64,000 nucleotides of DNA from Euglena gracilis (GCA_039621445.1 CP154954.1:38363703-38427702), one strand, 5' to 3'. Shown: positions 330-54,348, counted from the first letter of the stretch. The notes: generated by a model from the sequence alone, not told the origin. Numbers and translations are program-made.

Positions 330-601
330 CAGGGGTTTTTTTCATCGTGGACTCCAGGGGGGGGGGGTAGGGTGGGTGGGTGGGGCCCCGGGACCCGGGG
401 GGGGGGGCCCGCCGGAGGGGGCTGGGATGTACTTTTCAGCGCTTTTGGCGCAGAAATTTTTTGAAAAAGTGCTATTTTTTTAGCACTTTTCGCGATTTTC
501 GGCCATTTTTTTTGTGGGTCCCCCGACCCCCCCCCCCCAGGGAGGCCCCTCCAGGGGTTGGTGGGCGGGGGACCTCCCCCCGGTCTTAAGAAAAACCCCT
601 G
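330..601. mobile_element. hAT-type MITE, family A
   Basis: TIR CAGGGGTTTTT...AAAAACCCCTG; TSD tttctttc/ctcctttc (6/8). The same insertion is present in copy B at 3289-3558. Confidence 0.8.
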
Positions 602-624
602 CTCCTTTCTAAATGAATGGGGAA

Positions 625-1478
625 CAGGGAATTTCTTAAGGGCCCCCCCGGGGGGGTCCAGCCCAGACAATTGCTTAAGCACTGTCCCACCCCCCCCCCC
701 CCGGGGGGGGGGGTGACTGGTTTTTTCAGAGTGACTGACTGGTTTTGGGCCCGGACCCCCTCCCCCCCGGGGGGGGTCGGCCAGGAGTGGGCAAAAGTGG
801 CTTGAGTGACCCCAGCGCCGAAGGCGCCGGAAAATTTTTTTTGACCTAAAATGGCCTAAAGTGACTGGAAAGTGGCCGTTTTTCTGAGTGGCCGACCCCC
901 CCCGGGGGGGGGGGGTAGTGACTGGCTGGTTTTTTGAAAATGAGTGACTGACTGGTTTTTAAAAAAGTGGAGTGACCCCCTCCCCCCCCCCCCCCCCCCC
1001 GGGGGTCGGTAAGCAATTGTATGGTCCAGCCTCCGGCTGGCAAAAAAGGCTGCTGGCTGGATTTGAGCTGCTGGCTGGAACGACCCCCCCCCCGGGGGGG
1101 GGGGGGGGGGTGGGGGGTCCGGGACTGGAGGGGACTGGGCTGGGCTGGGTCGAGGAAAAACAAAATTTTCTAACACATTTTTGTCATTTTAGACGTTTTG
1201 ATGGGTGGAGCTAGATCAAGGCTGGGGGGCTGTGATGGAGGGCTGTGATGAGGAGAAAAAAAGCAAGGATAAGTGAGCTGGGCAGCCCAGTTGGCTGGCC
1301 CGCCTGCGGTTGGCTGGCCCGGCCTCCAGTTGGGCTGGACCCAGTTTTATTTTACTCGACCCCCAGGAGGGGGGCTCCCAGCCCGAATTTGGGCTGCTGG
1401 CTGGATTTGAGCTGCTGGCTGGCTGGACCCCCCCCCCCCGCGGGGGGTAGGGTACCCTCCGGCTTACAAAATTCCCTG
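625..1478. mobile_element. hAT-type MITE carrying a nested MITE
   Basis: TIR CAGGGAATTT...AAATTCCCTG; perfect TSD atggggaa (617-624/1479-1486). Copy B has the empty site with a single atggggaa (~3574-3581). Confidence 0.92.
664..1023. mobile_element. hAT-type MITE, family B (nested in 625-1478)
   Basis: TIR CAGACAATTGCTTA...TAAGCAATTGTATG; perfect TSD gtccagcc (656-663/1024-1031). Near-identical to 10672-11018. Confidence 0.92.
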
Positions 1479-1885
1479 ATGGGGAAGGAGCAAAAAAAAA
1501 GACATTCAATGCATAACACATCCCATCTGGGGCTGGGGTTGAAAATCCATTTTTTCACTGAGGGCTTTCCAAAAGAGTTGCCAGAGCCCCCTGCTTCCCT
1601 GTCCAGGAAGTTTCTTCGCGTGAGTGATGAAGAATACTCGAAAACCAATGAAATTTTTACACGCAAAGTGAAAATTCAGCTCAAAAAACAAGAGAATGTT
1701 TTTTTGGAGATAATTAAGCATGGGGCGGTGTCTCTTTGGCTCGGGGCGGCTCACGGTTTTGATTTTTTTCCTCCTCGCCAGTGAACGTTTTTTGAGCCCG
1801 CCCAGCTTTGGCTTTGGTGGGGGATTGGCAATTTTCAGGTTGGGGCGCAGCTTAAGAAAATTTGATCCCATGGGGGGTTCCAGCC

Positions 1886-2032
1886 CAGGGTTCGATATAA
1901 GGAGGGCGCCCAGGGTTCAGGTGGGGGGTGTCCCCCCCCACCCCCCTCCTGGACCACCCTGCCAAGGGGGTCCGGACCAACCCTGGGGGGTTCCGGACCC
2001 CCCCCCCCCCCCTGCCCTGAGATCGAACCCTG
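1886..2032. mobile_element. Short hAT-type MITE (duplicate at 3971-4103)
   Basis: TIR CAGGGTTCGAT...ATCGAACCCTG. The TSD is eroded (ttccagcc/ctccaccc in copy B). Confidence 0.7.
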
Positions 2033-2035
2033 GTA

Positions 2036-2131
2036 CTGTGTCGTTGACACGGCGTGTCGTTGACACCCCCCCCCCCGTGTCAACGACACTTTCCTGGAAC
2101 ATTGGCGTGTCAACGACAAGGGGGGGGGAGG
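2036..2131. mobile_element. TA-flanked palindromic MITE remnant
   Basis: GTGTCGTTGACAC x2 followed by its reverse complement x2. The right end CAAG-Gn-AGG|TA matches the end of 17741-18139. Confidence 0.55.
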
Positions 2132-2150
2132 TATCCTTCCCAGCCACAAC

Positions 2151-2359
2151 CAGGGTTTTTTTTTGTTTTGGACCCCCCGGGGGGGCAGGGTGGGTGGAGC
2201 CCCCCCCCCCCCCCCCGGGGTTCCCCCAGGGGTGAAATATACTTTTCGGAGCTGAAGGTGCTGAAACTTTTTGAGAAATGCACTGTTCTTAGCATTTTTC
2301 GCAATTTTTCGGCCCCTGGGGTGGGTGGGGGACCCCCCCCAGTCTTGATAAAAACCCTG
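2151..2359. mobile_element. hAT-type MITE, family A-related
   Basis: CAGGGTTTTT...AAAAACCCTG with internal similarity to 14674-14939. No recognisable TSD. Confidence 0.65.
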
Positions 2360-51792: not shown

Positions 51793-52729
51793 GTGTGCTC
51801 CGTCCATGCTTTGGCCTGAGTGTCCATCACACCGCCGCGTTGAATGGTCGACAAAGAGGACGTGGGGGTTTGAGCACCACAGCACAGCACAACACAGACA
51901 CACCTGATTGTCAAACCATCAAAACATTATTCTTCCTGTACCCACCCCGAATAACAGCGTTCATTTGGGTTTATTGTACATATTTGGGTTTTGGGTTGCT
52001 TTTTATATGTGGAGTTGTAATATGTAGTTTGCTTTATGTCGAAAATTTGGCCGTTCAAAGCACATTTTTTGAATGAAAATTTCATCTCTCATAAGAGTTG
52101 TTTGCATTTGGTGGTTGTTTGCAGTTCCCCCTTATGCAAGGTGTGTGTGTGTGTGTTTTTACGGTGCTGTGCCTGGGATGTGGGGAGGGGATACATATGT
52201 GTGTGCGTGTGTGTATGTGGCCCCAGAGCAAGGGTCTTGGTAAAAATCTGGTGAAGACAAAGCGGCATCAGCCCAGGATTTCAAAGCTCTCGGAGGGGTT
52301 GATATTTGAGGGGTTATAGTTGGACATGAAATCAAATTTCTGTGACAAAGCATTTGGGTTTCCGAACAGAATTTCGCAATCATTTTTTTGCCCAAATTCT
52401 GCCATTTTTAAGAGATATTGCACACCATTTTTTTTTATACCAACATTGTCAAGCTCATTGCCTGTAATGATTTCTGAAATCTTCACAAACCTGTCCATCC
52501 CACGCCGCTGGCGCTGTGGGCACTTCCCCAGAGGGGGGGCTTTGTATTTGGTTATTTGGAAGGTTAATTAATTGCCCATGTGCAACCGGCTTGGTACCCC
52601 CTCAATATGCCCAAAAAACCCACCAAATAACAAACACATTGTTGGAAGGATGCAGCTCTGTATTTTTCGGGTGATGTCCCCAAGTGCCATGCGGCAAGGG
52701 GAGAGTGGGACAGTATCTCCCCGCCACAG

Positions 52730-52816
52730 GAACTCCAGCGCCTGGAGGCGGAGATGGAGGTGGTCCGCGCCTTCGACACCCGCCGCCAGGAGCAGATCTG
52801 CGTGCTGGCGCAAGAG
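52730..52816 (+). CDS. Exon of coiled-coil/PDZ protein (ELQRLEAEMEVVRAFDTRRQEQICVLAQE)
   Basis: ccacag| ... |gtgagc; 87 nt; very strong G/C third-position bias. Confidence 0.8.
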
Positions 52817-53292
52817 GTGAGCCGTCTCCGCCCCTACGCCCCTGCCGGCTCTGCCACCCCCACCCTGGGCTGAACACTGAACTCCAGAGCCCAGGGGACA
52901 GGGGTGTTGCCAGGCTGGGGAAACAAGGGTTTCATCAAATTCGCATATTGTGCACACCACAGCCAACATATTTTCATTCCCCCCTCTCCGCAGCAAAAAA
53001 GCTTTCGGCTTGCTCCCCCTTACGCATTTTTGTCTGTTGAAATCCAAATTCTTTCCGAGGAACATGCACACCAACTGGGAATAATCCACCTAAGGCTCGT
53101 CATCTGCCCCTCCCCCAGCAAATTGCGCAGGTCTGCTCGGTTCTGCTCCTGTGTCGAAGAACCAGCTCCAGCGTGGTGTGGGATGCCCAAGAAGAGCTTA
53201 CTCTTCCGTGGGCGCCAAACCGAAGCCAGCCCGCTTTGGCTGGGCCAAGCCTGGGCCCCAAGCAACCCCCCCCCCCACGGTGGGCGCGGCAG

Positions 53293-53450
53293 TTCGGCCC
53301 GGCCCCCGCCGACGCGCTGCCGGAGGTCCGGGCCCTCGCCGCGGAGCTGCAGCACCGCACCGCCGCGCTGGACGACCTGAGGGCGGACCTCCGCTGCGTG
53401 GCGGACCAGCGCCGCCTGCTGCTGGAGGAGGAGGCGCTGCGGCAGGCGCT
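53293..53450 (+). CDS. Exon of coiled-coil/PDZ protein (FGPAPADALPEVRALAAELQHRTAALDDLRADLRCVADQRRLLLEEEAL...); boundaries uncertain
   Basis: Near-total GC3 bias and a heptad-like helix. No canonical GT donor follows nearby. Confidence 0.7.
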
Positions 53451-53939
53451 CACGCCTGGCGGGGAGCACGCGGGGGAAGGGGCGTCTCACCCGTCTCAAA
53501 CCTCTCTCCCACTGGAATTCCCGGCATCACTTAGAATGCTGCAGCAGGATACCGGTCATCGTTGTTCCAACCGAAAAGTGTTTCTGACGTTCTGCACCCA
53601 GTTCCCCCCATTTCGTCCCCAGGGTGGGCTAACTGACTGAGTGGTTGATCAACTGCCCCTCCCCATCCAAGTGACTTACTGGGTTTTTTTTCATCTTCGC
53701 TGTTCTTTTCCGAACAGTCAATTTTGATTTCTTCGTCTCCCTTCGGCTGCTCCACGCCGTCCCTGGTGCATTTGTATGAGGGTCAGAGATGGCATTTGCG
53801 GCATTTGTGGGCATTGCGCTTCGTTGTCATTCGGGGAGCAGTGATGACGTGCAGTGCACACCCGACGAGTGGCCCCCAACACCCCAACGTATGCGGACGC
53901 GGGGGTTAGGAACGGGGGGGGGGGGCACCCCCTGCCGGA

Positions 53940-54032
53940 TCCGCCCATCCCTGCGGGGGACCTCCTGCATGCCCTCGCGGCGATGCCGACCGCGCGGCCA
54001 AGGGTGGGCCCGCTGGGGTTGGCCCTCCAGAG
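53940..54032 (+). CDS. Exon with the PDZ N-terminal strand (..DLLHALAAMPTARPRVGPLGLALQS); 5' boundary uncertain
   Basis: The R..GPLGL motif resembles the PDZ carboxylate-binding loop and continues in frame after the MITE. Confidence 0.7.
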
Positions 54033-54340
54033 CAGGCTTCTGCTTGAGGGTTCTCAGCACCCTCCTGGGGGAGGGGGGGCTGGACTGCAGCTTGTCCAAA
54101 TTTGGCTGATGGAAACCCTACCCTGGCAGACCCCCCCGCCGGGGTCTGGCAAGGCTGGCTAGTGGAAAAATGTTTTCTTTTTCCAATGACCAGCGCGAAG
54201 CGCCAAAAATTTTTTGGACCCCCAACACTGGCCAAAAATGCCCATTTTCGGCTTTTTGGGGGGGTCTAGCTCCATTTTTTCCGTTGTCTAGCAAAATGGC
54301 AAGCCAGAGGACCCCCCCAGGGTCTTTAAGCAACAGCCTG
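54033..54340. mobile_element. hAT-type MITE, family D; candidate nonconventional intron (54030-54345)
   Basis: TIR CAGGCTTCTGCTTGAGGG / GTCTTTAAGCAACAGCCTG; perfect TSD ctccagag (54025-54032/54341-54348). Homologous to 11376-11808. Confidence 0.9.
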
Positions 54341-54348
54341 CTCCAGAG

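Follow-up and report, generated by a model that had tools for sequence, protein, structure and literature searches.

In a 64,000-nucleotide stretch of Euglena gracilis DNA (GCA_039621445.1, CP154954.1:38363703-38427702; hereafter the window, numbered from its first letter), twelve miniature transposable elements with inverted repeats (MITEs) are flanked by 8-bp target-site duplications (TSDs) with a common palindromic base preference, and this footprint partly fits the published code of Euglena nonconventional introns. One of the elements splits a PDZ-coding exon and is predicted to be such an intron. The elements, their TSDs, the base preference and the exon-splitting copy are observations made on the window, the intron code and the purine requirement at its junctions are taken from the literature. 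We put at about an even chance the view that transposase target choice seeds the junction consensus of these introns and that a splicing filter sharpens it, the junction purine being more than a mere fossil of target choice. The origin and the removal mechanism of Euglena nonconventional introns are long-standing questions, and in E. agilis such introns make up ~72% of all introns. The window contains intact TSD-flanked elements with intron-type ends, and the 3-nt and 5-nt spacers of the intron code correspond to their 8-bp footprint. The general idea of a "MITE-like origin" can in this way be turned into a specific testable claim, namely that a hAT-type transposase with a defined target motif inserted the elements and that splicing would be the exact reversal of insertion.

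The first-pass annotation of the window had listed twelve 8-mers as independent TSDs. All twelve were located, each of them flanking an inverted-repeat element with CAG or CAT ends. The terminal inverted repeats (TIRs) match at 11-14 of the first 14 bases in 12/12 elements and all start with CAG or CAT; directly inside the TSD, the window elements start with CAGG and finish with CCTG. Both TSD copies are identical (8/8) in eight elements, match at 7/8 positions in three (5768, 8923 and 10205) and at 6/8 in one (330). The elements are 244-854 bp long, non-coding and mutually nested, and they sort into at least three families of several copies each. Searching for inverted ends that begin with CA and whose 8-mer flanks agree at 6/8 or more positions gave 19 rows, which are the twelve elements of the first-pass annotation and seven tandem-repeat or weak pairs. 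In a second scan the first bases were left free, the 8-mer flanks had to be exact and the TIRs had to match at 12/14 or more positions; it gave 26 rows, of which seven are again elements of the first-pass annotation, 12 fall within tandem repeats (31.2-33.3 kb) and seven are low-complexity or other pairs. The twelve elements and one paralogous copy are the following, the outer coordinates including both TSD copies:

322..609, no strand: MITE 330-601 of the family with CAGGGG-T-run ends; TIR 12/14; TSD copies TTTCTTTC at 322-329 and CTCCTTTC at 602-609 (6/8)
3281..3566, no strand: paralogous copy of the 330-601 insertion, element 3289-3558; flanks CTCCTTTC and CTCCCTTC (7/8)
617..1486, no strand: MITE 625-1478, host of a nested MITE; perfect TSD ATGGGGAA
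656..1031, no strand: MITE 664-1023, nested within 625-1478; perfect TSD GTCCAGCC; TIR 13/14; ends start with CAGAC and CATAC
2618..3054, no strand: MITE 2626-3046; perfect TSD GTCCCAGA; TIR 14/14
5760..6019, no strand: MITE 5768-6011; TSD copies TTTGGAAT and TTTGGGAT (7/8); TIR 11/14
8915..9387, no strand: MITE 8923-9379; TSD copies CTCAAGAT and CTCAAGGT (7/8; position 7 A/G); TIR 14/14
10197..10494, no strand: MITE 10205-10486; TSD copies GCCCCTAC and GCCCCAAC (7/8; position 6 T/A); TIR 13/14
10664..11026, no strand: MITE 10672-11018 of the family of 664-1023; perfect TSD CCCCGGCC
14666..14947, no strand: MITE 14674-14939; perfect TSD TTTGATAC
21860..22176, no strand: MITE 21868-22168; perfect TSD GTTCGGTG; left end starts with CAT
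23037..23353, no strand: MITE 23045-23345, nested in a larger non-CAG element; perfect TSD ATAGTGAC
54025..54348, + strand: MITE 54033-54340 within a PDZ-coding exon; perfect TSD CTCCAGAG; predicted nonconventional intron 54030-54345

A segmental duplication provides natural pairs of filled and empty sites. A 2-kb non-coding unit is present twice (8-2029 and 2511-4100, 77-85% identity), and it contains one shared and two private MITE insertions. The insertion 330-601 predates the duplication because it is also present in the paralogue as 3289-3558; the latter belongs to the second copy of the unit and is not an independent event. The empty paralogous site of 625-1478 has a single ATGGGGAA at 3574-3581. 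The empty site of 2626-3046 has a single ATCCCAGG at 113-120, which after divergence matches the TSD GTCCCAGA at 6/8 positions. Since each of these empty sites carries only one 8-mer, the repeats are real 8-bp duplications, and duplication upon insertion is directly evidenced for 2/12 elements.

Regarding the base composition of the TSDs, the counts in the first-pass annotation hold as listed: T at position 2 (T2) in 10/12, a pyrimidine at position 3 (Y3) in 10/12, a purine at position 6 (R6) in 10/12 and A at position 7 (A7) in 7/12. Position 6 of 10205-10486 is T in the left copy and A in the right one, and at position 7 of 8923-9379 the left copy has A, the right one G. Counted conservatively where the copies differ, R6 is found in 9/12 and A7 in 6/12. 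The binomial probability of T2 in 10/12 is 1.3e-5. We drew 12 random 8-mers 20,000 times from the non-satellite part of the window (Monte Carlo), and any single base at any position reached 10/12 in 0.19% of draws. When the two halves of the site were symmetrised, T2+A7 reached 17/24 in 0.005% and 16/24 in 0.05% of draws, and Y3+R6 reached 20/24 in 0.5% and 19/24 in 2%. Moreover, Y3 and R6 occur together in 8/12 TSDs (P = 0.003 against 0.25). The preference for T2/A7 is solid (family-wise P 5e-5 to 5e-4). The preference for Y3/R6 looks real and lies, in a small sample, moderately beyond chance (family-wise P 0.005 to 0.02). Position 8 is C in 6/12 TSDs, position 5 is a pyrimidine in 4/12, and there is no CG core at positions 4 and 5. 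Part of the motif lies beyond the TSD: 7/12 sites have G at -1, and 6/12 have C at +10. Two degenerate copies (2151-2359 and ~11376-11808) were excluded from these statistics; R6, Y3 and A7 are present on both flanks of each, T2 in a single one of their four flank copies.

The element at 54033-54340 differs from the others in lying within a recognisable coding exon. The gene parts concerned are:

53850..54831, + strand: 3' part of a PDZ-domain gene; the exon runs to 54032, is split by the MITE and resumes at 54349-54403; Pfam PDZ_6, E = 1.9e-5
54404-54678, + strand: conventional GT-AG intron of the PDZ gene
54679-54831, + strand: last exon of the PDZ gene, where the PDZ match lies; stop at 54832-54834

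A search of representative proteins returned 230 PDZ-protein matches at E <= 0.001, the best with 48% identity, and tblastn of 150 PDZ matches against the window found one PDZ region only (184 high-scoring segment pairs, HSPs, all at 54.4-54.9 kb). Compared with longer proteins, the last PDZ exon gave no match at E <= 0.001. The reading frame is open across the junction only once the MITE 54033-54340 and 8 nt are removed; with the element retained, the upstream frame stops inside it. A PDZ profile was built from 196 domains of the matches, and its C-terminal half matches by construction. The product lacking the element and 8 nt aligns to positions 13-97 of this hidden Markov model (HMM) with 81.6 bits and is the only one that aligns across the junction. 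In four controls (element only removed, element and 16 nt removed, element retained, downstream part only) the alignment starts at HMM 24-30 and scores 74.3-76.4 bits, the gain of the 8-nt product being modest. The junction, GAG|CAG...CTG|CTCCA|G, agrees with the code N3-CAG...CTG-N5|R. Any 316-nt register inside the TSD CTCCAGAG leads to an identical mRNA, and in none of these registers does the exon-splitting element have GT-AG or GC-AG borders. RNA folding of 54033-54340 gives a terminal helix in both the minimum-free-energy and the centroid fold (z = -2.8). We predict from these features that the MITE 54033-54340 is the nonconventional intron 54030-54345. For the other 11 elements the corresponding test of spanning open reading frames (ORFs) was uninformative, because GC-rich DNA gives long ORFs in all frames around them. 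Six sequencing runs guessed to be RNA contain 21-38% of the sequence words of 52600-55000.

The nonconventional-intron code has been defined genetically as 5'-N3-CDG ... CH'G-N5-6|R(exon) (PMC12501133), and E. gracilis introns are described with CCAGG spanning +3 to +7 and CCTG spanning -9 to -6 (PMC11170887). A 5|3 cut of the TSD, proposed in the first-pass annotation, fits this published code: its spacers of 3 and 5 nt add up to 8 nt, the length of one TSD. The predicted intron comprises the element, 3 nt from the TSD copy upstream of it and 5 nt from the one downstream. As the spacers sum to one TSD length, splicing would restore the sequence present before insertion. With this cut a purine stands at the would-be exon +1 in 10/12 elements on the + strand and likewise in 10/12 on the - strand. 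A purine start of nonconventional introns and of their downstream exons, named in the first-pass annotation, is borne out by 55 published introns: exon +1 is a purine in 55/55, +2 is A in 43/55 and +3 is C in 30/55, and intron +1 is a purine in 51/55 (PMC4770533). TSD positions 6-8 (R 10/12, A 7/12, C 6/12) were judged not significantly different from exon +1 to +3 (Fisher P 0.03, 0.16 and 1.0, respectively), and position 6 also agrees with the purine at intron +1.

The following explanation can be offered. Short transposons of the cut-and-paste type, all non-autonomous, have inserted into the window independently at least 12 times. A dimeric transposase with a palindromic target of approximately nTYnnRAn(c) would insert elements with CAG-type TIRs and generate 8-bp TSDs. 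These elements appear to have the same architecture as Euglena nonconventional introns, which would be cut 3 nt before the CAG and 5 nt after the CTG, and nonconventional splicing would then be the exact reversal of insertion at the RNA level. TSD positions 6-8 would serve as intron +1 to +3 and as exon +1 to +3 together. Target preference would thus pre-load both junctions with a purine, and the symmetric pyrimidine at position 3 would do the same for an element in either orientation. The junction consensus of real introns would be the product of target bias and a splicing filter, the exon +1 purine being also functionally required. If this is true, the parts of the consensus are separable: R-A-C at exon +1 to +3 and the purine at intron +1 could stem from target choice, the pyrimidine at -1 and the near-absolute purine need a splicing explanation. 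The pyrimidine at -1 would come from the splicing filter or from coding context and not from target choice.

A further idea, to which we assign a low probability, is that splicing mirrors hAT-type insertion at the RNA level. The two TSD copies would pair with each other, extend the TIR helix over both splice sites and be opened by symmetric RNase III-like cuts. In the fold of the 54033-54340 copy, bases 6-8 of one TSD copy are paired to 1'-3' of the other and bases 1-3 to 6'-8', with a 2x2 internal loop between them. The copies can pair because the 8-mer CTCCAGAG is nearly palindromic; over the twelve TSDs self-complementarity is weak (positions 2:7 pair in 6/12, 3:6 in 5/12, 1:8 in 3/12 and 4:5 in 2/12). 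Spacers of 3 and 5 nt would make the cuts symmetric, each falling immediately 3' of the loop and ahead of a purine whose pairing partner is a pyrimidine. RNase III and a ligase have been proposed for such introns (PMC12621601); the stagger argument comes from the present analysis. In this model the two cuts would be offset by 2 nt and leave 3' overhangs, as is typical of a dimeric double-stranded RNA endonuclease such as RNase III, and ligation would follow. Y|R at both junctions would be one symmetric recognition site used twice, first seeded by the choice of target and afterwards fixed as a determinant of splicing.

Classical hAT ends are short TIRs that start with CAG. Because the window elements combine 8-bp TSDs, short CAG-starting TIRs and the palindromic target nTnnnnAn, their transposase was most likely of the hAT type (Ac/hobo/Hermes-like), as far as ends and footprint can tell. 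The first-pass annotation had named nTnnnnAn as the target consensus of Ac-family hAT elements; the window TSDs fit it with T2 in 10/12 and A7 in 6-7/12, and published hobo motifs agree, the hobo target being given as NTNNNNAN, refined to GTNCGNAC, palindromic and reaching outside the TSD (PMC3276498 Table 4). The window elements resemble hAT MITEs of the Ac/hobo/Hermes group in the 8-bp TSD, the short TIRs and a palindromic nTnnnnAn that reaches past the TSD (as in hobo GTNCGNAC). They differ in that they double as introns predicted to be excisable at the RNA level and live in a euglenozoan host. Two facts count against the hAT assignment. A domain search of 137 ORFs of 120 aa or longer in the window outside the satellites found 0 transposase families, the only matches being a weak LAB_N and the PDZ domain; and the D. 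melanogaster P element has the same 8-bp TSD with the target GTCCGGAC (PMC3276498 Table 4). For this reason the footprint alone would be compatible with a P-type enzyme. The same mechanism driven by a non-hAT transposase, for example of P type, that makes 8-bp TSDs at a GT..AC-type palindrome seems improbable to us. In its favour, GTCCGGAC agrees with the window motif at T2, Y3, R6, A7 and C8 (PMC3276498 Table 4), ORFs of 120 aa or longer lack a hAT protein domain, and the element 22806-23610, which has GG-type TIRs and an 8-bp TSD, indicates that more than one such system is present. The P superfamily, compared by TSD and target only, is similar in the 8-bp TSD and in a palindromic target whose outer positions fit the window TSDs; its GC-rich target core is absent from them, positions 4 and 5 being without CG. 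In addition, the TIRs of the window are short and start with CAG, as described above for hAT, and their nTnnnnAn motif has no GC-rich core. It could also be argued that the direct repeats arose by double-strand-break repair or are chance microhomology, and thus have nothing to do with transposition. Break repair was raised by the authors who described a newly gained gapC intron of E. agilis with direct repeats of 8 nt (PMC4770533), and Euglena introns often have short direct repeats at their borders, 84% of introns being 'slidable' (PMC12501133). We regard this origin as very improbable for the window elements, since their repeats are exactly 8 bp long and lie directly outside inverted termini, and the 8-mers have a palindromic motif in common. 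The elements also form multi-copy families: BLAST with the element 625-1478, which encloses 664-1023, as query aligned to 10666-11026, spanning the MITE 10672-11018, with 89% identity over 378 nt. Finally, the empty paralogous sites carry a single copy of the 8-mer.

Whether the purine at the junctions goes back to target choice is a separate question. The first-pass annotation suggested that the splice consensus could be a fossil of transposase target preference. This interpretation is partly supported. The geometry, the R-A-C match at positions 6-8 and the joint occurrence of Y3 and R6 stand, and from them we infer a causal link between target bias and intron consensus; the purine as a mere relic does not stand, for it is functionally required and reaches 97% in introns. 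The same applies to the proposed comparison of logos, in which TSDs and introns agree at positions 6-8 and disagree at position 5. The main competing account is that the purine at exon +1 (and intron +1) reflects only the need of the nonconventional splicing machinery. The purine at intron +1 would either be recognised itself or be present as the TSD counterpart of the exon base under selection, and the R6/Y3 excess in 12 TSDs would be sampling noise or would come from copies in transcribed DNA. We consider this account possible, though on the unlikely side. Y3 accompanies R6, which the palindromic target of a dimeric transposase would predict; a one-sided splicing filter predicts neither the symmetric Y3 in 10/12 nor the 8/12 sites with both. 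Non-coding repeats harbour at least three of the sites (one nested in a MITE, two in the C/G-run-rich duplicated unit), and position 6 is a purine in 3/3 of them. A7 and C8 match exon +2 and +3, neither of which has a known splicing role. A number of facts nevertheless weigh against our reading and in part favour a splicing filter. Splicing depends on the exon +1 purine, as knock-in mutagenesis has shown: A-to-C at exon +1 of EaNC-INT1 gives an unstable transcript, and with G-to-T or G-to-C at exon +1 of EaNC-INT3 the EgGSL2 transcripts fail to accumulate (PMC12501133). A purine is found at exon +1 in 153,108 of 157,875 E. agilis CAG-CTG introns (97%; Dataset S8), compared with 75-83% in the TSDs (P(<=10/12) = 0.049, P(<=9/12) = 0.005). 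As the purine is required and is commoner in introns than in TSDs, selection alone could produce it. In the text of PMC4770533 intron +2 and +3 are called unconserved, even though A7 belongs to the two strongest positions of the target; the +1 purine is kept in 51/55 while +2 and +3 drift, suggesting a constraint on +1. At TSD position 5 a pyrimidine is found in 4/12 sites, compared with 49/55 introns at exon -1 and likewise at intron -1 (Fisher P = 1.5e-4). Conventional GT-AG introns have a purine at exon +1 in 80% as well, and the 11 non-exonic copies may be transcribed. The sample is 12 sites from a single 64-kb window, the family-wise P of Y3/R6 is only 0.005-0.02, two of the scored positions differ between TSD copies with the fitting copy having been the one listed, and the 55 published introns come from three genes, with homologues from several strains, their counts being non-independent.

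That hAT-like MITEs and transposon-derived introns exist is known; new is that an 8-bp footprint, together with its motif, is explicitly mapped onto the code of the introns. A MITE-like origin of these introns is a hypothesis in the literature, where "TSD-like" repeats have been noted, and 8-nt direct repeats of the newly gained E. agilis gapC intron were ascribed by the authors to break repair (PMC4770533). In the main texts of these papers we found no statement of an 8-bp TSD rule, of hAT or of a target motif for such introns. The window elements are similar to the euglenid nonconventional introns (Milanowski et al. 2014, 2016; Nomura et al. 2025) in having CAG at +4 to +6, CTG at -8 to -6, pairing ends, an exon +1 purine and direct repeats at the borders, and one of them splits a coding exon; they differ in that the window copies lie mostly outside recognisable exons and have intact TSDs. 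Introners of Micromonas, dinoflagellates and others are likewise DNA transposons turned introns, with the TSD giving part of the junction signal (PMC11282704). However, it is the spliceosome that takes out introners, at GT/GC-AG sites obtained from the TSD by co-option, whereas the exon-splitting element of the window has non-GT-AG borders (GAG|CAG ... CTCCA|G) and the removal of nonconventional introns in Euglena yields circular introns.

Further copies and candidates were looked for in several ways. BLAST of 13 copies against the window gave 82 extra HSPs, among them only two degenerate full copies, the ones left out of the statistics above; the other extra HSPs are solo or mutated ends at 7692, 25714 and 46926. 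A relaxed TIR/TSD scan of the window yielded no further clean element (61 rows against 77, 16 and 59 in shifted-flank controls) and is dominated by noise because of the 198-bp satellite. The pair 6846-7626 was rejected as an element as its flanks differ, and the pair 25714-46926, consisting of two solo ends with unrelated flanks, was rejected too. The pair 54817-56611 has CAT...ATG inverted ends (11/14) and 7/8 flanks; it does not fit the CDG/CH'G code and was left uncounted. It begins five codons before the stop of the PDZ ORF, and its removal would let the ORF run on. When the end pattern of family A was searched in metagenomes, at least 119 loci were found, all with single matches, and a 34-nt chance similarity to the window was seen in only one of those listed. 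A scan of genome contigs gave 32 single bacterial matches, which are chance matches only, and a scan of viral contigs gave 0.

Upstream of the split exon, the region 52700-53460 appears to hold further exons of the same + strand PDZ gene; judged by eye, they would encode a coiled-coil-like stretch with much Ala, Leu, Glu and Arg. The gene has a conventional GT-AG intron at ~52820-53293. The stretch 53460-53850 may contain an older nonconventional intron that lacks a TSD.

The window has 50-61% GC, and runs of C and of G are abundant. Conventional introns in it begin with GTGTG or GTGAG, donors that have been described for E. gracilis (PMC11170887). Judged by these donors, by the C and G runs and by element ends (CAGG...CCTG) that match the consensus of Euglena nonconventional introns, the window is probably nuclear DNA of euglenid type. 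A search of the window against Rfam matched no family. Tandem DNA makes up about a third of the 64 kb. The largest part is a ~198-bp satellite array of ~16 kb (30700-46700), whose sub-variants measure 172-203 bp and which shows higher-order periods close to 390-400 bp. The solo MITE end at 25714 lies ~5 kb upstream of this array, and the one at 46926 ~200 bp past its distal edge. A 29-bp minisatellite occupies 17239-20106, its main block having 50 copies.

Two other kinds of element were noticed. At 22798-23618 an element of 805 bp (22806-23610) has a perfect 8-bp TSD, GACCTGGT, and GG-starting inverted ends of 21 bp (20/21). It encloses the CAG-type MITE 23045-23345, its TSD departs from nTnnnnAn, and it may belong to a different superfamily with 8-bp TSDs. 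Within the 29-bp minisatellite two MITEs of yet another kind are inserted (17740-18141 and 18257-18650), flanked by TA duplications and having long C-run/G-run inverted ends. Because these TA-flanked MITEs carry a Tc1/mariner or Stowaway-like footprint, a second DNA-transposon system is active in the genome.

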